Shown here: positions 5,589 through 21,086 of the stretch, piece by piece | Numbering within the stretch: position 1 is the first letter of the stretch | How the letters are laid out: each line of letters begins with the position of its first letter | Assembly: GCA_963798485.1 (NCBI GenBank) | Contig: CAWCTR010000029.1 | Span: 1 to 21,086, forward strand | DNA: 21,086 nucleotides | Source: an uncultured delta proteobacterium | GTDB lineage: Bacteria; Desulfobacterota; Desulfomonilia; UBA1062 | Reading direction: 5' to 3' | Translations under genes and position numbers: made by a program | The notes under the pieces: model-generated | What the model saw: the letters and a program-made list of their open reading frames with translations, nothing else | Told to the model about the DNA's origin: nothing | Databases searched by the model: none

Positions 5589-7433
5589 TCAACCTCTCCG
5601 CTCAATACCCTCCCAGAATCGGTCTTCAATCTCTTTTTTACACATCTTTCCGTCGATATGGCGGGGAAGTGCCTCGACAAATTCCACGTACTTCGGGATC
5701 TTGTAACCGATGAGATTGAGTGTTTTCAGGTGCTCGATGATCTCGCCCGCCATGAGGACATGGCCGTCTTTGAGCTGGATCACCGCAGCAGGCACCTCGC
5801 CGAGCTCCTTGTGGGGGTAGCGCACCACGGCGACATCCAGGACCTTGTCATGTTTCTTTATAGCGGTCTCGATCTCGTTGGGGAAGATGTTCACCCCGCC
5901 GGTGATGATCATCTCTTTATCCCTGCCGGTGAGGTACAGAAACCCGTCTTCATCAAAGTGGCCCAAAAGACCGTCGTCGAACCAGGGCTCGCCATCCACG
6001 AGCCTGAATGCGCCCTCAAGTTTCTCGGGCGACCCCACATAGTTGAGGCCCACCGTGGTGAGGCTGCGGCTGAGGATACGGCCGTCCGTACCAGGCGGGC
6101 ACCAGGATCGGGTTTGTTCATCAAAGACCTTGGTTTCAGCACAGCGGATCTTACCGACGCTCTCATAGCGCTTGGGATTTTCCTCATAGTCTCCGGGCAG
6201 GAGGACGGAAGACACCCCTGTCTCGGAGGACCCGTAGAACTCGGTGAACACGTTTTTATTGCATCCCTGCCGTTTGAACAATGCATTGGTTGCCTTTTTG
6301 AGCTCTGGGGTTGCAGGGGCGGCTGCGCATATAATGGTGTGCATGGAGCTGAGATTGTAGTGATTTTTAACAGCGTCGGGCAGCGCAAGGATCCGCTCAA
6401 GCATTGCGGGCACGACAAAGATCCAGTTAATCCTTTCTCGTTCAATTATTTTGAGGATATCCTCAGGGTCAAACTTCTGCATGGGCACTCCGGTGCCGCC
6501 GAGCAGGATAAAGGGGACCCATCCTGCAATGGAGCCTGCATGGTAGAGAGGCCCCGGGATGAGGCAGCGCATATTCTTCGTAATGGGGTCTGATATTTCT
6601 GTTCCGCCGAACCAGTACATAAAGCTGAACTGGAGTACGAGGAGTCTGAGGTATTCCCCGAGCGGCACCTTGGGCGCTTCAGCCAGATCGCTGAAGGCAT
6701 AGCCGATACTGTCAAAGTAATTGACATTTTTAGGTGTGCCCGTAGTCCCGCCGGTGTAGGGATTCAATGCCACGGCGAAGTGGGTATCGGGCATGGTGCT
6801 TGGTGCGTGCGAGAGGAGCTCTTCGTAGTTTATAGCATCTGCCGGAGAGGCCTTGCCCACAACGATGTAGTGCTCGATGCTTGGCAGGGCGTCTTTCATG
6901 GGCAGGATCCTGTCCGCGAATTCGTCATGAAGGATAAGGACCCTTGGCTTTACGCGATTGATGGAATCCACAAGTTCACCACCATCCAGATGCCAGTTGA
7001 GGAAGGGCATGGGGCAGCCGATGAGCGAGCAGGCAAAAAAGGCCTCGAAGAATTCGTTTCCGTTATACAGCAGCTCGGCGCAGCGATCCTTGGGTTTGAG
7101 TCCGAGGGATTGAAGGGCATTGGCCAGTCTGAAGACCCTGTCCTTGAGCTGGTTATAGGTGTAGCGCGAACCTTCCGAGATGAGGGCCTCACGCTCACCG
7201 AAGACCTCCCACATGGATACCAGGAAGTTCGGGGTGATCTTTTCCAGCCTAAAGCTTGCCAGGGCCTTGATGGTTTTGATATGCCCGGTCTTGCTGCCGG
7301 TCTTCAGCAGGATACGAAGGGTATTCATAACTCCCCACTGCTTGTAGAATGTCTTCAGGAGCCCTTTGGTCTGTTCCATCGATGCCAGGGCGGGTATGGC
7401 GTTCATGAGATTCCTGAAACTCTTGTCCCCCAT
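5589..7433 (-). CDS. acyl-CoA synthetase / AMP-binding (ANL superfamily) protein with atypical motifs
   Basis: YTGGTTGTPKNV P-loop, PLYH, FYGSSET, GRDKEMIITGGVNIFPNEIE and terminal GKMCK. The (T/S)GD motif reads DGL. GGAGG RBS. Confidence 0.9.
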   Translation of the reverse strand: MGDKSFRNLMNAIPALASMEQTKGLLKTFYKQWGVMNTLRILLKTGSKTGHIKTIKALASFRLEKITPNFLVSMWEVFGEREALISEGSRYTYNQLKDRVFRLANALQSLGLKPKDRCAELLYNGNEFFEAFFACSLIGCPMPFLNWHLDGGELVDSINRVKPRVLILHDEFADRILPMKDALPSIEHYIVVGKASPADAINYEELLSHAPSTMPDTHFAVALNPYTGGTTGTPKNVNYFDSIGYAFSDLAEAPKVPLGEYLRLLVLQFSFMYWFGGTEISDPITKNMRCLIPGPLYHAGSIAGWVPFILLGGTGVPMQKFDPEDILKIIERERINWIFVVPAMLERILALPDAVKNHYNLSSMHTIICAAAPATPELKKATNALFKRQGCNKNVFTEFYGSSETGVSSVLLPGDYEENPKRYESVGKIRCAETKVFDEQTRSWCPPGTDGRILSRSLTTVGLNYVGSPEKLEGAFRLVDGEPWFDDGLLGHFDEDGFLYLTGRDKEMIITGGVNIFPNEIETAIKKHDKVLDVAVVRYPHKELGEVPAAVIQLKDGHVLMAGEIIEHLKTLNLIGYKIPKYVEFVEALPRHIDGKMCKKEIEDRFWEGIERRG

Positions 7434-7501
7434 GCATTACCTCCGTGTGCAAATTGCACTCACATACTATTCAACTTACGTGTTATATGGGCCATGTTTT
7501 T

Positions 7502-9304
7502 TCATCGCTCCGGTTGAATCATATCGCTTAATGCAGGGGAAAGCGGCTTGCCATAGTCCTCCCTTACCTTGTTCCGCAAGACCTTTCCCACAGGGCTCAT
7601 GGGAAAGGCATGGGCAAACACTACCGACTTGGGCCGCTTGAACCCGGTCATCTTGTCTTTGCACCATGAGATGATCTCCTGCTCCGATGTTGCCCTCCCG
7701 GGTTTTAACACCACGACTGCCCGGACGATGTTGCCCCATGTTTCGTCGGGTACGCCGATAACGCATACCGAGTCGATCATTTCATGACGGGCCATGATCT
7801 CTTCCACCTCATGGGGGAAGACCTTTTCCGCGCCGGTTGAAATGCATTCTCCCTTGCGGTCCACCACGATAAGCTCGCCATCGGCGTCCACATAGCCGAG
7901 GTCACCCGAAAGGAACCATCCGTCTTTGATCACCTCGGATGTCTTTTCCGCCTCGCCGTAATAACCCTTCATGATGGTAGCGCTCTGATAGAGGATCTCG
8001 CCGGTGCTTCCTTGGGGCACATCCTCACCTTTCTCGTCGACAATTCGCATCTTGATGCCGGAAAGGGGCCGACCGACTGACTTGTTTTTGATGGTCTCCG
8101 GTGAGGTATCGATCCGCAGTGCCGTATCAGGCGTCATCTCTGTCTGGCCGAACACATCCACAACGATGGAGTTCGGGAATTTTTCGAGAATCTGTTTTTT
8201 CCGGCTGCCCGGGTTGGCCCCGGCGCCGGTCATGGCCACGAGCACCGACCTGCGGTCGTAACGGTCGATATCAGGGTAATCGAGGATCATTTTCCACTGG
8301 GTCGGCACGAGAAGCACCACCATGGGCCGCTCTTTGGCAATGGTGGTGAGCACTTCGGCAGGGTCGAAATGGATGCCTTCCCTGAGGATGAAACGGATGA
8401 GCCCGGACATGGGCCCGATGATGAGGAGCTGGTAGTTGGCCATATGGAAGAGCGGCATGTTCATGAATATGGAAAGCCCACCGGTGATCCTTCCAAGAAG
8501 CGGGCTGATCGATTTGCCTGTGGTCTTGGCGAGGAGTGCTGGTGCATTACGTGAGACGAACGAGCGGATCTTGGGAAACCCCATAAGCCTGTTAAGGGGC
8601 GCTTCGAGCCACGGTACGTGGACGAGGCTGGCGATTATCCTGCCGAAGTTCACCTTTTCATCACAGGCAAGCCTGCCGATCAGGTCGCCGAAGAGTGATT
8701 GTGCGAGGTTCCAGAAATTGGAGTAGGTGAGCACAACCCCCTTGGGCAGCCCGGTGGTGCCGCCCGTGTAGCAGATGGTGCATACGTCATCTTCTGTGGT
8801 GCATGCAGGCGGTTCTATAGGTGGGTGTGAGGCTATGGCCGCCCCATAATCGAGCATGCCCTCCGGTACCGGACGTCCATCGCGTGACAGGCAGATAGTT
8901 TGCCTAACGGTGGGGCAGTTCTTCAGGGCTTTACATGTCTCATCCAAGAACAGATCCTCAAATATAAGGAGGGTCGAATCCGAGTGCGTGAGCTGGTATT
9001 CGATCTCCCGGGCTACAAACCTGAAATTGATGGGTATCGGCACGGCCCCGAGCTTCTGGAGGGCATAGTTGGCCTCGATGAATTCCGGGCAGTCGTGGAA
9101 CAGGATAGCAGCGTGGTCCCCCTTTTTTATACCCAGGCCTTTCAGGGCGCCGGCCAGGGAGTTGACCCGCTCATTGAGCCCTTGCCAGGTGATATTTGTA
9201 TTTCCGCAGGTAACGGCGATTCCCTTTGGGTTGAATCGGGCCATGCCGGCAAGAAGTTCGCCGAAGCTTTTCCTGGCGATTGGTTTCAGTTTAAGCCATG
9301 TCAT
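7502..9304 (-). CDS. long-chain fatty-acid--CoA ligase-like AMP-binding protein
   Basis: YTGGTTGLPKGV, PLFH, FGQTE, WFLSGDLG and PVGKVLR. Confidence 0.92.
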   Translation of the reverse strand: MTWLKLKPIARKSFGELLAGMARFNPKGIAVTCGNTNITWQGLNERVNSLAGALKGLGIKKGDHAAILFHDCPEFIEANYALQKLGAVPIPINFRFVAREIEYQLTHSDSTLLIFEDLFLDETCKALKNCPTVRQTICLSRDGRPVPEGMLDYGAAIASHPPIEPPACTTEDDVCTICYTGGTTGLPKGVVLTYSNFWNLAQSLFGDLIGRLACDEKVNFGRIIASLVHVPWLEAPLNRLMGFPKIRSFVSRNAPALLAKTTGKSISPLLGRITGGLSIFMNMPLFHMANYQLLIIGPMSGLIRFILREGIHFDPAEVLTTIAKERPMVVLLVPTQWKMILDYPDIDRYDRRSVLVAMTGAGANPGSRKKQILEKFPNSIVVDVFGQTEMTPDTALRIDTSPETIKNKSVGRPLSGIKMRIVDEKGEDVPQGSTGEILYQSATIMKGYYGEAEKTSEVIKDGWFLSGDLGYVDADGELIVVDRKGECISTGAEKVFPHEVEEIMARHEMIDSVCVIGVPDETWGNIVRAVVVLKPGRATSEQEIISWCKDKMTGFKRPKSVVFAHAFPMSPVGKVLRNKVREDYGKPLSPALSDMIQPER

Positions 9305-9376
9305 GATGCCCCCTAACCATAGTAAAAAGAATCACCGGGCAAGGCACCCGAGTTAATATCGTATGATGGTTATATT

Positions 9377-9405
9377 ATAATACATAAAAAGAAGTTGGAA
9401 TTCAA
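9377..9405 (-). promoter_or_regulatory. sigma70-type promoter for the 9304 ligase
   Basis: Minus strand TTGAAT-17 bp-TATTAT, ~70 bp upstream of the start codon and downstream of a terminator. Confidence 0.55.
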
Positions 9406-9451
9406 TGACGATTAGAAGTTAGGCTTAAGGAAGTGTCCTTTTCTGATTTAT

Positions 9452-9482
9452 AAAAAAGGGCGGGCCGGATACCGGCCCGCCC
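9452..9482 (-). terminator. Rho-independent terminator
   Basis: Perfect 11-bp GC stem GGGCGGGCCGG-ata-CCGGCCCGCCC followed by T6 on the minus strand, 75 bp after the 9557 stop. Confidence 0.85.
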
Positions 9483-9556
9483 AATATATCGGAGGTTTTT
9501 CGTGATGGGGGTTTTTAGCAGTAATTGCCCACCCTTTGTTATGAAGAAAGTCGATC

Positions 9557-11200
9557 CTAGGAGTACATAGTCCTGATCAGCTTCTTGTCGATCTTGCCCA
9601 CGCTTGTCTTGGGTATCTCTTCGGTTATGATATACCTGTCCGGGATGGCATATTTGGGTATCTTGCCTTCAGATGCACAGATCTTCATGAACTCTTTGAG
9701 AACTTCCTCGCTCACACCGTCACCCCTGAACTGGGGTTTCAGGATGACCAGCAGCATGGGCCTCTCTCCCCACTTGGTATCGGGAATGCCGATGGCCGCC
9801 GCCTCCTGGACCGCAGTGTGGGTGCTGATTGCGTTCTCCAGGTCAAGTGAAGATACCCATTCACCGCCTGTCTTGATGACATCCTTAAGCCGATCTGTGA
9901 TCTGTATATACCCTTCGTCATCAAGATAACCCACATCACCCGTATGGAGCCATCCGCCGTTCCAGAGCTCCCCGGTCTTTTCCGGGTCCCTGTAATAACC
10001 GTGGGTGAACCAGGGTGCGCGCACAACGATCTCACCCGTGGCCTGCCCATCGTTCGGCAGGAAGTTACCCTGCGGGTCGGCGATCCTCACATCCACGAGC
10101 GAGATGGGTATGCCTGTCTTAATGACGATATCGCTCTTCTTCTCGTTGTCAAAGTCTTTCATGGATGGTTTGAGGTTCGATACACTGATCACCGGGCAGG
10201 TCTCAGACATGCCGTACCCCGCCATCACCTGGATACCTAAGTCGAGGGCTGCCTTGGCAAGCCCCTTGGGGAGCCTTGCCCCGCCGATGATGACCTTCCA
10301 GTATGAGAGATCGAACTTCTTGGAGATGGGGCTGTTCACCAGCATCTGGAGGATGGTAGGCACACAGTGGGAATAGGTAACCCTTTCTTCCAAGATGAGC
10401 TTGATGAGTACTTCGGGCTCATACTTGCCCGGATAGGCCTGCTTGATGCCCATCATGGTGGCGATATAGGGGAATCCCCAGGCATGGACATGGAACATGG
10501 GGGTGATGGGCATGTAGACATCCGAGGTGGAGAACCGTAGCGGTGTGTCATGGCAGCTCACTGCTATGCATACGCTCATGGAATGCAGCACGATCTGCCG
10601 GTGGGTGAAGAACACCCCTTTGGGGAGTCCTGTTGTCCCGGTTGTGTAGAAGGTGGTCGCCTTGGTGTTTTCGTCAAGGTCCGGGAAGTCGTAATCCGGG
10701 GATGCCTTGGCCAGCATCTGTTCATATTCCTCATCAAGGTGCACTTCGGTCTGCGGCATCTCGATATTGTCATTGAGGAGAACAACCTTTTTTACCGTCT
10801 TCAGCCTGTCCCTTATGGATAAGAAGAGAGGCAGGAAGTCGGCGTTGATAAGCACGACATCGGCCTGGGCATGGTTTATGGTGTACTCGATCTGGTCCGG
10901 GGAGAGACGCCAGTTCACCGTAAACAGCACGGCGCCCAGCATGGGAATTGCGAAGAAACTCTCAAGATAGCGGTGCGAGTCGTAATCAAACACGGCGACG
11001 GTATCTCCCTGCTTCACGCCGAGGCTGTTCAGAGCGCTTCCAAGCCTGTTGATCCTCTCAAAGAGGTCGCGGTAGGTGTAGCGCACCTTGTCCCGGTACA
11101 CGATCTCCTGATTTTGCGCGCTGATCTTAGGGCTTGTCAGCAGATCCTTGATAGTGAGCTGAAACCGATAATGTTGTCCGTTAAGGGATTTTACCGCCAT
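9557..11200 (-). CDS. fatty-acid--CoA ligase (AlkK/medium-chain type)
   Basis: YTTGTTGLPKGV, PMFHVHAWG, GYGMSET, WLHTGDVG, DRLKDVIKTGGEWVSS and TSVGKIDKK. AAGGAGG RBS favours ATG 11200 (MAVKS) over 11242. Confidence 0.95.
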   Translation of the reverse strand: MAVKSLNGQHYRFQLTIKDLLTSPKISAQNQEIVYRDKVRYTYRDLFERINRLGSALNSLGVKQGDTVAVFDYDSHRYLESFFAIPMLGAVLFTVNWRLSPDQIEYTINHAQADVVLINADFLPLFLSIRDRLKTVKKVVLLNDNIEMPQTEVHLDEEYEQMLAKASPDYDFPDLDENTKATTFYTTGTTGLPKGVFFTHRQIVLHSMSVCIAVSCHDTPLRFSTSDVYMPITPMFHVHAWGFPYIATMMGIKQAYPGKYEPEVLIKLILEERVTYSHCVPTILQMLVNSPISKKFDLSYWKVIIGGARLPKGLAKAALDLGIQVMAGYGMSETCPVISVSNLKPSMKDFDNEKKSDIVIKTGIPISLVDVRIADPQGNFLPNDGQATGEIVVRAPWFTHGYYRDPEKTGELWNGGWLHTGDVGYLDDEGYIQITDRLKDVIKTGGEWVSSLDLENAISTHTAVQEAAAIGIPDTKWGERPMLLVILKPQFRGDGVSEEVLKEFMKICASEGKIPKYAIPDRYIITEEIPKTSVGKIDKKLIRTMYS

Positions 11201-11448
11201 ACTGACCTCCTTAGAGTCATTGTAGTAACTATGGTGAATCATCGGTCAAAACAGGTTTCACAACAATCAGTTGCAGACTGTTTCTTATGTGCATGAAGGG
11301 AGGAAAGATCGGTAGGGAGATGACCTACAGTACTTCTCAATTTTAGATTACCATGCTCAACGGCTACCGAGATAATGGTAATGTTGACAAACGCTCAGAA
11401 AATGTCACACTGGAAAAACACATGTCATAGATTCAAAAGGAAGGGGCC

Positions 11449-15794: not shown

Positions 15795-16229
15795 ATGACC
15801 AAGCCGGAGCATGCATTAGAATTATTCTCCTCCAAATACTCCTGCGCCCAGGCAGTACTGATGTCCTTTGCCGGGGATTTCGGCATGGACCGGCTCACGG
15901 CATCAAAGGTTGCCTGCGCATTCGGCGGAGGGATCTCTCACCTGGGGCTCACCTGCGGGGCCGTTTCCGGGGCTCTTATTGCCATCGGGCTTAAACATGG
16001 CGGCGGCCCTGAGATGAAGGAAAGGACCTATGAGATCGTCAATGAGTTCGTCGAACGCTTCACCAGGCTCCACGGCTCCATCAACTGCACCGAGCTCATA
16101 GGGTACGACCTGGGCAAGCCTGAGCAACTGGCCGAGGCAAGAGAAAAGGCCATCTTTGCCGTCCGATGCGTCAAATATGTGGAAGATGCAGTAAAGATAC
16201 TCGAAGAGATGTTCCGACCCATAGGCTGA
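15795..16229 (+). CDS. C_GCAxxG_C_C family putative redox protein
   Basis: YSCAQAV, FGGG, TCGAVSG, SINCTEL and RC spacing match the family. Confidence 0.88.
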   Translation: MTKPEHALELFSSKYSCAQAVLMSFAGDFGMDRLTASKVACAFGGGISHLGLTCGAVSGALIAIGLKHGGGPEMKERTYEIVNEFVERFTRLHGSINCTELIGYDLGKPEQLAEAREKAIFAVRCVKYVEDAVKILEEMFRPIG

Positions 16230-17849: not shown

Positions 17850-18218
17850 ATGAATATTTGTATACCCATAGAAAAAGACGAAGGATTAAACTCGGCCGTG
17901 TACGGTCATTTCGGGAGCGCACCGTATTTCGCCATCTATAATACCCAGAGCAAGGAAATGGAGATCGTGAACAACGGCAACCTGCATCATGCACATGGGC
18001 AATGTAATCCCATTGCCGCATTGTCAGGTAAATCGGTAGATATCCTGGCTACCGGGGGGATAGGCGCTGGGGCTATCGAGCGGCTGCGCATGATGGGGGT
18101 AAAGGTCTGTCGTGTGGTTTCCGGTAAGACCATACAGGATATCATAAGGAGCCATGAGCAGGATGGATTGAAAGAAATCGGCGGTGATGATGTTTGCAAT
18201 CATCACTCCTGTCATTAA
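17850..18218 (+). CDS. NifB/NifX family (dinitrogenase Fe-Mo cofactor-binding domain) protein
   Basis: ICIP, HFGSAPYF, HAHGQC.P, GGIG.GA and terminal CNHHSCH; AGGAGG RBS. Confidence 0.9.
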   Translation: MNICIPIEKDEGLNSAVYGHFGSAPYFAIYNTQSKEMEIVNNGNLHHAHGQCNPIAALSGKSVDILATGGIGAGAIERLRMMGVKVCRVVSGKTIQDIIRSHEQDGLKEIGGDDVCNHHSCH

Positions 18219-18264
18219 ATATTCCTCAAGGGACATACTCATGAGGCAGGATTACTGCCCTGTC

Positions 18265-18944
18265 CTATTCCCCTTCAGAGAGTTCCTCAAGGGCCTTGCT
18301 GTTCAGGATAGTGATTATCTTCCCTTGAACTTCCAATACGCGATCGTTCTGCATCTTTCTTAAGGCACGGGAAAGGGCCTGGGAGTTGATCCGAGTATCT
18401 TGGACAGTTCCCGATGGCTGATGGGCAGCTCCATCCTTCCTCCTTTGCCCTTATTTTCACGGACCTGGGTGAGGATGAGGAATGAAGCCAGACGCTGGGG
18501 GATCTCCTTCAGCGCCAGGGATTCGATGAGTGTCATGGATTCTTTGAGCCTGCGGGATAACACCTTCAGGATGTTCAGGAGGAGCGCCGGATCTTTCATG
18601 ACGATCTCCTCCACGGCTGCACCGGGAATGGTGAGGATGTCCGACTTCTTCAGTGCCTGGGCTTCAGCGGGAAAGTCATGGGTGGCAAAGGCGGTGCACA
18701 GGCCGAAAGGCTCACCTGATCCCAGGAGATACAGAGTCTGCTCCCTGCCTTCCATTGAGCTTTTGGAGAGTTTCACCTGTCCCGTAATAATTACAAAGAA
18801 CTGCTTGACCAGGTCCGTCTCGGCAACGATCACTTCCCCCGGCTGGTATGTCCCTATAAGTACACGCCGGGAAAGGGCCTCCAATACTTCATCGGATAGC
18901 CCCTGGAAGAGAGGTATGTCCTGAATCTGTTTCAGCGTGTCCAT
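18265..18944 (-). CDS. Crp/Fnr family transcriptional regulator (frameshift at ~18380)
   Basis: IPLF.GL, G.VKL.K....GREQ.L..L..GE.FG and RLA.FL motifs. One added G gives HTH ...LSKILGSTPEALSRALRKMQNDRVLEVQGKIITILNSKALEELSEGE* with stop at 18265-18267. Start is 18944 or 18959. Confidence 0.9.
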
Positions 18945-18956
18945 AAAAACCCATTC

Positions 18957-19000
18957 CATTGATCTAGATCAATGACCGCACCAACGATGTCGTCTATGTT
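18957..19000 (+). promoter_or_regulatory. FNR-type box with class II activated promoter geometry
   Basis: Perfect 18-bp palindrome CATTGATCTAGATCAATG containing TTGAT-N4-ATCAA (18959-18972). TATGTT at 18995-19000 sits at the -10 position if the box is centred at -41.5. Confidence 0.8.
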
Positions 19001-19076
19001 TAATTTCACGGGATGAAACCTTGTTATCATAAGGAAGAATACCGGGCAAAAGAGATCAACGCTTCAAGGAGTGAAA

Positions 19077-19418
19077 ATGGCGGGCAAAGAATACGTAACC
19101 CATGCCCATGACAACACGTTCGATACCCTTGTCTTAAAGACAAACAACCCAGCCCTTGTGGATTTCTGGGCGCCCTGGTGCGGACCCTGCCGGGCTATCG
19201 GACCGGTCCTGGAAGAGATAGCAAAAGAATATTCCGGACGGGTGAATGTCGTGAAGGTAAATGTTGATGAAAGTCCTGAAACATCAAGGAAATACGGGGT
19301 CCGGAGCATTTCCACCTTATTGTTCATAAAGGCTGGACAGGTCCGGGAGACGCAGATAGGTTCTCTCCCCAAGGCACAACTCACGGCTTTTATAGACAGA
19401 CTTAAAGTAACCCTGTAA
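19077..19418 (+). CDS. trxA: thioredoxin
   Basis: LVDFWAPWCGPCR, KVNVDE and YGVRSI. AAGGAG RBS favours ATG 19077. Confidence 0.95.
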   Translation: MAGKEYVTHAHDNTFDTLVLKTNNPALVDFWAPWCGPCRAIGPVLEEIAKEYSGRVNVVKVNVDESPETSRKYGVRSISTLLFIKAGQVRETQIGSLPKAQLTAFIDRLKVTL

Positions 19419-19446
19419 ACGACAAAAGTAGAAAGGAAAGTAGGTT

Positions 19447-19605
19447 ATGAGCGATTTCTGGATATTCATTATTGCACTGGTTCTCTGGTTTTTCTTCCAG
19501 ACCTGGCTGTTCCCCCGGCTGGGTGTTCCTACCTGAGCATCTGGACCGGCCTGCCGGGTGGCAGACAAAAAAGACCATAATCTAAAAATATCTTCCAGGA
19601 GGTAG
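19447..19605 (+). CDS. putative small membrane-anchored selenoprotein (52 aa, UGA30 = Sec)
   Basis: MSDFWIFIIALVLWFFFQTWLFPRLGVPT-[TGA 19534-19536]-ASGPACRVADKKDHNLKISSRR-TAG 19603-19605. SECIS-like hairpin follows the UGA, and the readthrough stops 2 nt before the next ATG. Confidence 0.7.
19540..19566 (+). promoter_or_regulatory. putative bacterial SECIS element
   Basis: CTGCC-GGGT-GGCAG hairpin (19551-19564) with a G-starting loop 19 nt after UGA. An alternative fold TCTG..CCGG-CCTG-CCGG..CAGA is also possible. Confidence 0.55.
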
Positions 19606-19607
19606 TC

Positions 19608-20921
19608 ATGAAGAAAAGCAGTATTATCTTAGCAATGGCACTATTAGCCTTTATCGTATCGAGTTCAGGTGCCTTAGCAACCAACGGTGATAATATGATC
19701 GGTGTGGGCCCCATTGCGAATTCCATGGGCGGTGTGGGCATTGCAGCACCCCAGGACGCCATCACCTCGGTCTTTGCCAACCCTGCCTCGCTTGGTTTTG
19801 TGCCATTTGCCCCGGCCCCATCCTTTGACTTTGCCGGGACGATATTAATGCCCAAGGTTAGTGCCGAGGTGAGGACAATCAGTGGAACCGCCACCACTTC
19901 TGTCAAGGCGGACAGTGCTGATGCCACATATGCCATCCCCGCCATCGGCCTGAATGTCCCTATGGGACCAGACATGCCCAGGTGGAGGTTTGGTTTGGCA
20001 GCCTATGGAGTTTCCGGCCTTGGTGTTGATTACCGCGGTACCGCTCTTGATAATGCCTCGGGCTATAATTTCGGCGGCGGAAAGGTTGCCCCCCTTATCC
20101 AGGGTGAATACACACAGCTCCAGATCATGAAATTTTCACCGGCCATATCCTATATGGCCAGTGATACCATAGCGGTGGGTGCTGCGTTGCAGATCGATTA
20201 TGCAACGTTGGATCTCAGGAGCGGAACATCACCCAATTATGGCGCGGGCCTGAACCTAGGGCTTCTCTATACACCCATTGATGTTGTGAGACTGGGCCTG
20301 ACCTACACCACTGCACAGCCGGTCACCTATAAGCGGATTGAAGACTTTAACCAGGACGGAACTCCTGACAACCTCAAACTCGAGTCGCCCCAACAAGCAG
20401 GTTTTGGTGCGGCCTACACTATCAAAGGTCCGATTAAAACACTCATTGAGGCGGATGTGAAATGGATAAATTGGGCTAATGCAGATGGGTACAAGGATTT
20501 TGACTGGAACAACCAGTGGGTATATGCCATTGGGGCACAAGTGGAGCCCAAGGAGAACTTCTTTTTACGATGCGGGTTCAACTACGGCAAGAACCCCGTT
20601 GAGACACACAACGGTTTTAATGGAAGTTTCAATCCCTCTACAGGATTGCCGAACAGCGCGGTTAATGTCCAGGGCAATTACCTCCCTGCCTATTACTATG
20701 AGACCTTCCGGATCATCGGATTCCCGGCCATTGCGGAAAAGCATCTCACCTTGGGGACCGGATACTGTTTCAGCAAAAACTTCTCCATGAACCTGGGCTA
20801 CATGCATGCCTTTGAGAAGACTATCTCCGAGACCGGGACCGACTTGTTCGGCAGGCCTGTAACACTTGAGTCGAAACTCAGCGAGGACAGCATCGATTTC
20901 GGGCTTACATGGGTCTTTTAA
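19608..20921 (+). CDS. OmpP1/FadL family outer-membrane transport protein
   Basis: Signal peptide, N-terminal hatch TNG...IG.GP...SMGG..IA......S...NPA, alternating beta-strand pattern and C-terminal Phe; AGGAGG RBS. Confidence 0.88.
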   Translation: MKKSSIILAMALLAFIVSSSGALATNGDNMIGVGPIANSMGGVGIAAPQDAITSVFANPASLGFVPFAPAPSFDFAGTILMPKVSAEVRTISGTATTSVKADSADATYAIPAIGLNVPMGPDMPRWRFGLAAYGVSGLGVDYRGTALDNASGYNFGGGKVAPLIQGEYTQLQIMKFSPAISYMASDTIAVGAALQIDYATLDLRSGTSPNYGAGLNLGLLYTPIDVVRLGLTYTTAQPVTYKRIEDFNQDGTPDNLKLESPQQAGFGAAYTIKGPIKTLIEADVKWINWANADGYKDFDWNNQWVYAIGAQVEPKENFFLRCGFNYGKNPVETHNGFNGSFNPSTGLPNSAVNVQGNYLPAYYYETFRIIGFPAIAEKHLTLGTGYCFSKNFSMNLGYMHAFEKTISETGTDLFGRPVTLESKLSEDSIDFGLTWVF

Positions 20922-20972
20922 AAAGTATAAGAGCTGACCTTCGTGTATGCATAGCCCCCGGGAGGAATAAGG

Positions 20973-21086
20973 ATGTCAAATCTCAGCAGTACTCATAAGG
21001 AATATCTCAAGGAAAAATTCAAAGACCGCGTGAACTTCGATGACGTGGAGCGAATGCTCTACAGCCACGATATCGCTGCCATGCCG
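20973..21086 (+). CDS. FAD-linked oxidoreductase (GlcD/D-lactate dehydrogenase-like), N-terminus only
   Basis: GGAGG RBS, then MSNLSSTHKEYLKEKFKDRVNFDDVERMLYSHDIAAMP running off the window. ER..YSHD resembles the N-terminus of FAD-binding PCMH-type oxidases; only 38 codons are visible. Confidence 0.6.
   Translation, partial: MSNLSSTHKEYLKEKFKDRVNFDDVERMLYSHDIAAMP

Follow-up and report, generated by a model that had tools for sequence, protein, structure and literature searches.

A 52-residue membrane selenoprotein candidate encoded between a thioredoxin gene and a porin gene, and its widespread family of very short bacterial genes

What, if anything, is encoded in the 189 nt that separate a thioredoxin gene from a porin gene in the genome of an uncultured delta proteobacterium of the Desulfobacterota (GTDB lineage Desulfomonilia; UBA1062)? 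The stretch of DNA analysed here, referred to as the window, is 21,086 nt long (assembly GCA_963798485.1, contig CAWCTR010000029.1, positions 1 to 21,086 of the forward strand), and in it trxA ends at 19418 and the porin gene begins with the ATG at 19608. An initial annotation, made from the letters of the window, placed in this gap a small gene on the forward strand, between trxA and the porin gene, at 19447-19605, and each of the elements it described was found at the positions it gave. Under the standard code the open reading frame (ORF) from the ATG at 19447-19449, from which residues are numbered herein, closes after 29 codons at the TGA at 19534-19536. If the TGA is read through as selenocysteine (Sec, U), the product has 52 residues, MSDFWIFIIALVLWFFFQTWLFPRLGVPT-U-ASGPAC-RVADKKDHNLKISSRR, and ends at the TAG at 19603-19605, 2 nt before the porin ATG. 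Comparison with homologous sequences makes it very probable that 19447-19605 is a true selenoprotein gene. To the whole of the reading that we favour, in which a Sec-decoded membrane peptide acts as a thioredoxin-recycled redox site, we assign a probability of about 0.6.

The case for selenocysteine begins with the TGA, which would encode residue 30 and is kept across relatives. When 61 related genomes were searched with the readthrough peptide, the 47 best matches, found in 46 genomes, each contained a single in-frame TGA, and the mixed set of weaker matches (E > 0.02) is taken as noise. All 30 of the relatives' loci that were extracted have U at residue 29 or 30 and share the same build, a short acidic N-terminus and a hydrophobic helix with an invariant Trp, followed by L-P-[RK]-x-G-[VI]-x-T, U, 4 or 5 further residues, a Cys and a charged tail. 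In the alignment of Sec forms (A1) P23, G26, T29 and U30 are invariant, as is W14 within the helix, and C36 is at least 90% conserved. With a profile built from 28 of the 30 loci, the family is detected in 121 of the 254 genera and 186 of the 401 genomes in a phylum-wide sample, and among the matches listed, to which a further 46 are to be added, all but one contain the TGA. That one, in genome G103, ended at residue 29, and on inspection its next codon is also TGA. Forty further loci from the phylum, mostly one per family, were fetched with their flanks; a pattern search recovered the motif in 39 of them and the fortieth is a P-S-G-U variant. The Sec form extends to the Planctomycetota, in which 20 of 201 sampled genomes have a match, with TGA in 19 of the 20. 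No homologue in the related-genome and phylum searches has TAA or TAG at the Sec position.

The frame is also maintained beyond the TGA. Across 68 loci, a set that excludes the near-identical second copy of the window, it is open for at least 13 codons past the TGA in all 68 and for at least 14 codons in 67, compared with 39 and 38 loci when the other two frames are read. U is followed by a Cys at +5 in 52 loci, at +6 in 14 and at neither position in two, and the differences in length between U and Cys are always whole codons. The Cys in the window is Cys36 (TGC, 19552-19554), which we propose as the resolving partner of Sec30, and it closes the conserved core L-F-P-R-L-G-V-P-T-U-A-S-G-P-A-C (19507-19554) that is seen both in alignment A1 and when A1 is aligned by hhalign with the profile of Cys-containing homologues (A4). 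The codon-position entropies are 0.79/0.42/1.78 before the TGA, where the third position is strongly raised, and 1.35/1.10/1.42 after it, where the third position is slightly raised; because this excess is weak, the tail, the Cys aside, is taken to be loosely conserved. With regard to the two Sec forms that have no Cys at +5 or +6, the tail of L149 (G403:C2) has no Cys at all, while that of L049 (G010:C69) has a single Cys 16 residues after U. The initial annotation had suggested a tBLASTn-type search for coding conservation past the TGA, and had considered that homologues ending in TAA or TAG, or diverging after this position, would speak against a selenoprotein. What the homologues keep is the TGA, the open frame, the Cys in 66 of 68 loci, and the charged tail.

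Homologues with Cys in the place of Sec, whose absence would likewise have told against the proposal, are in fact abundant. The Sec-form profile matched 210 proteins in a 5.8-billion-protein collection, and in the full-length ones Cys takes the place of the window's TGA (...LPRFGVPT-C-MSGxC...). When the Cys-form profile was run with HMMER against 1.84 billion representatives, 1562 matched at E<=0.001, 185 of them at E<=1e-10. When profiles A1 and A4 are aligned with hhalign (probability 99.8%, E 1.3e-28), the U column pairs with the Cys column. A scan of named genomes located 30 loci of the Cys form, in Planctomycetota, Acidobacteriota, Verrucomicrobiota and one metagenome-assembled genome of the Myxococcales. 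Among 263 family proteins that were retrieved, Cys occupies the Sec position in 181 and the gene call ends at that position in 61. The initial annotation had expected pipelines to truncate the protein at 29 residues or to miss the gene. The position is filled by W in 12 of the 263, by R in two and by G, S and L in one each, and four proteins fall outside the pattern used to classify the residue. The records with W, R, G, S or L are P0007, P0014, P0204, P0206, P0218, P0229, P0231, P0235, P0237, P0243, P0251-P0253, P0257, P0259, P0262 and P0263. Codons for each of these residues are one base from TGA, and TGA itself is read as W and G under codes 4 and 25, respectively. Some of these sequences, which are known from protein records alone, may be gene-calling artefacts in which a TGA was read under another code. 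P0079, from the same lineage as P0007, stops at the Sec position.

Downstream of the TGA lies a hairpin resembling a bacterial selenocysteine insertion sequence (SECIS), CUGCC-GGGU-GGCAG at 19551-19564, formed by CTGCC (19551-19555), a GGGT loop (19556-19559) and GGCAG (19560-19564). Its stem starts 14 nt and its loop 19 nt after the UGA, and its energy is -8.3 kcal/mol, as read on the near-identical second copy, which has the same hairpin letters as the window. As outlined in a 2026 review (PMC13188914), a bacterial SECIS element has its apical loop 16-37 nt beyond the UGA, and G is found in the first two positions of that loop. The loci were compared using a simple per-sequence scan of our own rather than bSECISearch (energy <= -6 kcal/mol, 16-37 nt, G in the loop). 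A hairpin of this type follows the TGA in 29 of 30 close-relative Sec forms, compared with 485 of 3314 (14.6%) of all other TGA triplets in the same loci, and in 36 of 39 independent phylum-wide Sec forms, compared with 449 of 3035 (14.8%) of their controls. When the Cys forms, which come from G+C-rich genomes, are scanned from the Cys codon, the numbers are 13 of 30, with 24.6% in the controls. Hence the hairpin goes with the TGA, as is expected of a SECIS element, since it is far more common after the TGA than after the Cys codon. Owing to the shared descent of the genomes, Mann-Whitney P values for these comparisons exaggerate the difference. The stems vary between subgroups (CUGCC/GGCAG, CCUGUCC/GGACGGG, GGAUCGA/UCGAUCC and others) while their place is constant. 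One member, L043, lies outside the simple hairpin definition and has a larger structure instead. A single consensus SECIS alignment was dropped in favour of the per-sequence scan with controls, as the hairpins of the subgroups are in different registers, and an Rfam scan of 19300-19750 at E<=10 returned two chance matches only, both far below the gathering scores.

Signals for translation and the machinery for Sec insertion are both present. A Shine-Dalgarno-like AGGA (19434-19437, forward strand) lies 9 nt 5' of the start codon, and a GGAG, GAGG or AGGA core precedes the start by 4-17 nt in 53 of the 68 loci of the family, compared with 1083 of 8812 (12.3%) other ATG triplets. Taken together, the conserved TGA of the relatives, the Cys homologues, the recurrent hairpins and the Shine-Dalgarno-like core point to more than chance. 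The initial annotation had considered that a genome without selABC would argue against Sec insertion, and the assembly to which the window belongs contains selB (323.9 bits), selA (519.5), selD (383.3) and tRNA-Sec (75.9), all scoring over the curated cut-offs. The selD gene itself carries one in-frame TGA, and selB is present in two copies with near-equal scores, on contigs C27 and C28. The features generally expected of a bacterial selenoprotein, which are a conserved UGA, Cys homologues, coding sequence downstream, a stem-loop and the Sec machinery, are therefore all found. Selenocysteine use is nearly universal in the phylum, with selA in 371 of the 401 sampled genomes, and a proposed link between the family and the Sec trait was rejected, since the family is present in 186 of these genomes and the presence of the machinery does not predict it. 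The TGA form also occurs where no selA was matched, in G014, G038, G196, G328 and three incomplete genomes of genus g36. G103, a 100%-complete genome in which the TGA is kept at locus L157 (G103:C29:37216-37302), has no selA match at E<=1e-30. The sequence after the TGA of L157 is short and diverged (U-IGKDDRKDSCK-stop), and it may represent either a decaying copy or a functional 29-residue form.

The predicted peptide is simple in construction. A transmembrane helix, FWIFIIALVLWFFFQTWLFP, is predicted at about residues 4-23 (19456-19515), within which W14 and P23 do not vary in alignment A1, and the sequence after Cys36, RVADKKDHNLKISSRR (19555-19602), is a charged and probably disordered tail. 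An AlphaFold2 model of a Cys homologue, calculated with its alignment, contains one helix, residues 3-26, with a predicted local distance difference test (pLDDT) value of 92 over the first 20 residues, followed by a region without secondary structure (pLDDT 54-76). A prediction of a homodimer from two copies of residues 1-48 of a Cys-form module scored 0.02, a value that counts neither for nor against a dimer. The segment after the helix has more Lys and Arg residues than the one preceding it in all 68 Sec forms and in 42 of 47 Cys forms, and by the positive-inside rule these counts suggest that the N-terminus is outside and that the Sec/Cys tail faces the cytoplasm.

As far as our searches reach, the family is undescribed, being absent from the libraries and catalogues that were examined. 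The window peptide matched no family at E<=1 in Pfam and NCBIfam (June 2026 release), in agreement with the initial annotation, which could not assign it to a named family, and 47 Cys homologues gave scattered single matches (E 0.005-0.4) to unrelated families that are taken as chance. Among the protein matches listed, the Pfam column is empty and the only name given by the source is 'hypothetical protein'. The Cys-form profile had one match among Protein Data Bank sequences, ribosomal protein eS26 (E 0.37), also taken as chance, and an ESM Atlas search with the natural Cys homologue P0021 retrieved what is apparently its own Planctomycetota cluster only (score 0.84), with no family. Table 1 of the 2026 review gathers 119 prokaryotic selenoprotein families and subfamilies (PMC13188914), and none of the 119 entries is a transmembrane peptide of about 50 residues or has a T-U-x4/5-C motif. 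Most rows of that table name a Pfam or NCBIfam model and are covered by the scans above, those with only a cd or PTHR model were compared by their table descriptions, and the 2025 mSystems families of Haft and Tolstoy are covered through the same table and the NCBIfam models. Families reported previously are also gathered in BSepDB, according to its description (PMC13326102). A search of the main texts of the full-text literature, supplements apart, found neither a bacterial single-pass membrane selenoprotein nor the motif strings, and in the extracts that it returned the term 'membrane selenoprotein' refers to the eukaryotic SELENOK/SELENOS type. The family is therefore new, as well as large, widespread and mostly Sec over Cys, and its architecture is one not so far listed for bacterial selenoproteins.

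Four known systems provide points of comparison. SELENOK and SELENOS (VIMP), the eukaryotic single-pass selenoproteins of the endoplasmic reticulum membrane, are also small. Each has a single transmembrane helix at the N-terminus and bears its Sec in a disordered cytosolic tail, and in SELENOS a Sec-Cys selenenylsulfide is reduced by thioredoxin. They have no sequence relation to the small gene, as the scans with the Pfam library, which presumably includes the SelK and SelS families, gave no match. Their Sec is 2-3 residues from the C-terminus, whereas in the window peptide it is juxtamembrane, residue 30 of 52, and the latter has neither a Sec near the end of a Gly/Pro-rich tail nor a match to their profiles. 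The window peptide is also half their size or less, and its SECIS hairpin is of the bacterial type, within the coding region. Selenoproteins of the thioredoxin fold with UxxC or CxxU motifs (thioredoxin, glutaredoxin, peroxiredoxin-like and DsbA-like, among others) likewise have a Sec/Cys pair, Cys homologues and a bacterial SECIS, and like the small family they probably have a thiol-redox role linked to thioredoxin. The small family differs from them in its U-x4-C or U-x5-C spacing, its membrane anchor and its length of about 50 residues, and no thioredoxin fold was matched in the window peptide or its Cys forms (Pfam and NCBIfam, E<=1), the model being one helix with a disordered tail. The members of the FeoB-associated Cys-rich membrane protein family (PF12669) are also tiny, and in them too a transmembrane helix at the N-terminus precedes a short tail that bears a Cys motif. 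However, the motif is different and no feoB was seen among the neighbours of the small gene, and we know of no Sec forms of that family. Lastly, the CX4C C-terminal tail of class Ia ribonucleotide reductase, a flexible dithiol that lies outside a folded domain, is reduced by thioredoxin and passes reducing equivalents on, is a working analogy for U-x4-C, although it is part of a large soluble enzyme and has no membrane anchor, Sec or homology to the small family.

The evidence for a connection with thioredoxin comes from neighbouring genes and from natural fusions. In the window, trxA (19077-19418, forward strand, with the start at 19077 or 19071) encodes a thioredoxin with the WCGPC motif (PF00085, E 8.5e-31; TIGR01068, 121 bits against a cut-off of 96.8) and ends 28 nt upstream of the small gene. 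A trx gene is directly upstream on the same strand in 11 of the 30 relatives' loci, which come from two genera. In the genus of the window (eight related genomes and the second copy in the window's genome) it lies 9-41 nt upstream, and in the second genus the two genes overlap by 1 nt. Another family (f2) has a gene for an AhpC/TSA redoxin at the upstream position in four loci. Farther afield, trx occurs within four ORFs in 4 of the 39 phylum-wide loci, and genes with a thioredoxin domain are near 5 of the 30 Cys-form loci. The module is also found fused to a thioredoxin domain in three natural proteins, whole in P0123 and P0212 and shortened in P0122, and in a fourth (P0124) it is fused to a rhodanese domain; these two were the only fused domains found in a search for longer relatives. 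The suggestion in the initial annotation that the peptide is a thioredoxin partner thus gains independent support from the adjacent trx genes of several lineages and the three thioredoxin fusions.

The gene neighbourhood is not conserved, the only recurring functional theme being thioredoxin. Clustering of the neighbours of the 30 close-relative, 39 phylum-wide and 30 Cys-form loci revealed no neighbour common to the family, and the small gene behaves as a free-standing gene. The porin gene downstream was rejected as a partner because it is a neighbour in only 4 of the 30 close relatives; beyond the genus this neighbour is not retained. A search of the junctions between trxA, the small gene and the porin gene in the window gave no promoter- or terminator-like site, and this absence lends weak support to the three genes being on one transcript. 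Certain lineages of the Cys form have neighbours of their own. In Planctomycetota (among loci L086-L115) a zf-HC2 protein of the anti-sigma zinc-finger type is encoded directly upstream on the same strand in nine loci, a CusB/HlyD-type membrane fusion protein and an AcrB-type resistance-nodulation-division (RND) pump are encoded downstream in 6-7, and a cytochrome bd subunit I-like gene follows in four. The neighbours at three Acidobacteriota loci encode a tandem Usp protein and a DUF302 protein.

We propose that the small gene is genuine and is translated into a single-pass membrane selenoprotein of 52 residues. The UGA at 19534-19536 would be decoded as selenocysteine by the SelA, SelB, SelD and tRNA-Sec of the genome, with the hairpin at 19551-19564 serving as the bacterial SECIS element. 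In the orientation predicted from its charges, the very short N-terminus of the inserted peptide would be outside and the tail would extend into the cytoplasm, so that Sec30 and Cys36 would lie a few residues away from the membrane's inner face. The Sec/Cys pair probably alternates between the selenol/thiol and selenenylsulfide states, and it would be re-reduced by thioredoxin, the gene for which is 28 nt upstream. On this view the peptide would provide a redox site tethered to the membrane, which may act as a reductase, a peroxide scavenger or a redox sensor at the membrane surface. Judged from sequence, we would put the chances of this functional part, a thioredoxin-coupled juxtamembrane redox site, at roughly even, which is well below our confidence in the selenoprotein gene itself. 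Of the tiny membrane-anchored redox selenoprotein that the initial annotation had envisaged, the selenoprotein gene is supported by the comparisons, while the redox role is a matter of inference and has metal binding as a live rival.

Several observations weigh against this proposal. The window hairpin on its own proves nothing, since the local fold is no more stable than those of shuffled sequences (RNAfold of 19528-19590, z = -0.63, with 51 of 200 shuffles folding at least as well), and of the earlier claim of a SECIS-like hairpin what stands is its presence and its recurrence in Sec forms and not its significance in the window. In a search of sequencing runs, part of the stretch was found in five DNA runs from two studies and in no RNA runs. 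Most of the phylum-wide neighbours are unrelated housekeeping genes, and in the 39 loci the largest cluster of shared neighbours comprises six loci with a housekeeping-type GTPase. The thioredoxin-fold neighbours of 15 of the 30 close-relative loci represent few events, as related genomes are not independent, and the fusions, known from protein records alone, could be gene calls that run through a lost stop codon. Few as the thioredoxin links are, and dependent as the relatives are, the links agree with one another across different phyla. Lipoprotein or signal-anchor N-termini are found on the AhpC/TSA proteins of family f2 and on several of the Planctomycete thioredoxin neighbours, which therefore look periplasmic, in conflict with a cytoplasmic Sec/Cys tail. 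There are also metal-type neighbours in some lineages, including ArsR, MerR, DUF364 and a CusB-like membrane fusion protein with an RND pump, and 3-5 cysteines are present in 83 of 177 Cys forms, a content compatible with metal binding and with redox chemistry alike.

Taken together, the metal-type neighbours, the multi-Cys forms and the periplasmic-looking thioredoxins make a soft-metal role the main rival. The same selenoprotein would then use Sec and Cys to bind soft metals or metalloids (Hg, Cu(I), Cd, As or Ni) at the membrane surface and, instead of catalysing redox reactions, would serve a transporter or regulator as its chaperone, buffer or sensor. This we consider unlikely but by no means negligible. 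The segment G-V-x-T-U/C may be likened to the GMTCxxC metal-binding loop, and genes for an ArsR-type helix-turn-helix protein (4 of 30 loci), for DUF364/DUF4213 'heavy-metal chelation' proteins (3 of 30) and, in some loci, for MerR are found nearby, in addition to the zf-HC2, CusB-like and AcrB-type genes of the Planctomycete Cys-form loci. However, these metal-related neighbours are a minority and differ by lineage. Neither the window protein nor the 47 Cys homologues matched PF12669, MerT, HMA or any other metal-binding family at E<=1 in Pfam and NCBIfam, and the fusion partners are thioredoxin and rhodanese domains and never metal transporters. In addition, 66 of the 68 Sec forms have U and one Cys only, which are too few ligands for a single chain. 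The rhodanese fusion is what speaks for a different role of the same selenoprotein, as a membrane-bound carrier that passes on activated sulfur or selenium (persulfide, perselenide or selenotrisulfide), and it is well established that thioredoxin is also employed in sulfur and selenium trafficking. Yet only a single such fusion was found, no conserved TusA, YedE or SelD occurs among the neighbours of the 30, 39 and 30 loci, and the presence of the family in 186 genomes compared with 371 for selA places it outside the core selenium pathway, so that we regard such a relay as improbable.

The remaining rival does away with selenium altogether. Translation would end at the TGA to give a 29-residue membrane peptide, and the sequence and hairpin downstream would be an RNA element or an accident of descent. 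The 61 database proteins that end at this position, the lack of significance of the window hairpin alone, and genome G103, which keeps the TGA with a diverged tail and has no detectable selA, could all be read in this way. Against this, the Cys homologues align through the TGA position and further, the frame is open in every one of the 68 loci with whole-codon length differences and a Cys codon at +5 or +6 in all but two, and no homologue in the related-genome and phylum searches has TAA or TAG in its place. The preference of the hairpin for TGA over the Cys codon and the absence of any Rfam family match also count against a termination signal or RNA element, and we therefore consider a simple stop to be very improbable, the least probable of the three rivals. 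The selenoprotein with a thioredoxin-recycled redox site remains the reading that we prefer.

A few further features of the window and its assembly should be recorded. The porin gene (19608-20921, forward strand) encodes a FadL/TodX-type outer-membrane channel (PF03349, E 6.7e-15), and a gene for a Crp/Fnr regulator (18360-18959, reverse strand) is divergent from trxA. At 15795-16229 (forward strand) an uninterrupted ORF encodes a C_GCAxxG_C_C 'putative redox-active protein' (PF09719, E 2.5e-32), a family that is listed with selenoprotein forms (PMC13188914). Three consecutive AMP-binding genes of the acyl-CoA ligase type, encoding 614, 600 and 561 residues, occupy 5589-11242 on the reverse strand, and beyond them, further downstream, are a gene for a FadL-type channel and the Crp/Fnr regulator gene just mentioned. 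A second contig of the same assembly contains a 3.1-kb stretch (G000:C22:11693-14848; L022) that is 99.4% identical to window positions 17952-21086, with 13 mismatches and four gap openings, and it includes trxA, the small gene and the porin gene. The contamination estimate for the assembly is 6.96%, and the duplicated stretch and the duplicated selB suggest that the bin contains two strains or redundant contigs.

The catalogues of selenoproteins have been built with methods that miss very short genes, and this family shows the cost. Its gene occurs in 186 of 401 genomes, about half of those sampled, in a phylum rich in selenoproteins, and also beyond that phylum, yet it has been left uncalled or recorded as a 29-residue stub. 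One short profile added to annotation pipelines could mend thousands of records. The family would add to the bacterial selenoproteins an architecture that consists of a bare transmembrane helix with a Sec/Cys pair and no folded domain, and since Sec is near-exclusive over Cys in two phyla, it can be argued that selenium chemistry is needed for its function. The peptide is small enough to be synthesised and could be used to probe how a selenol behaves at a membrane surface, and it is a candidate partner for the many 'orphan' thioredoxin genes of anaerobes. More tentatively, and with less confidence than we place in a redox role as such, these may be among the most widespread of the bacterial selenoproteins that have so far gone unrecognised, each a thioredoxin-recycled membrane selenol that would protect or monitor the membrane at its cytoplasmic face, for instance through the reduction of lipid hydroperoxides or of disulfides close to the membrane, with Sec instead of Cys kept in nearly all anaerobes that have the family. 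Such a peptide would be a counterpart of GPX4 and SELENOS in function, and not by descent.

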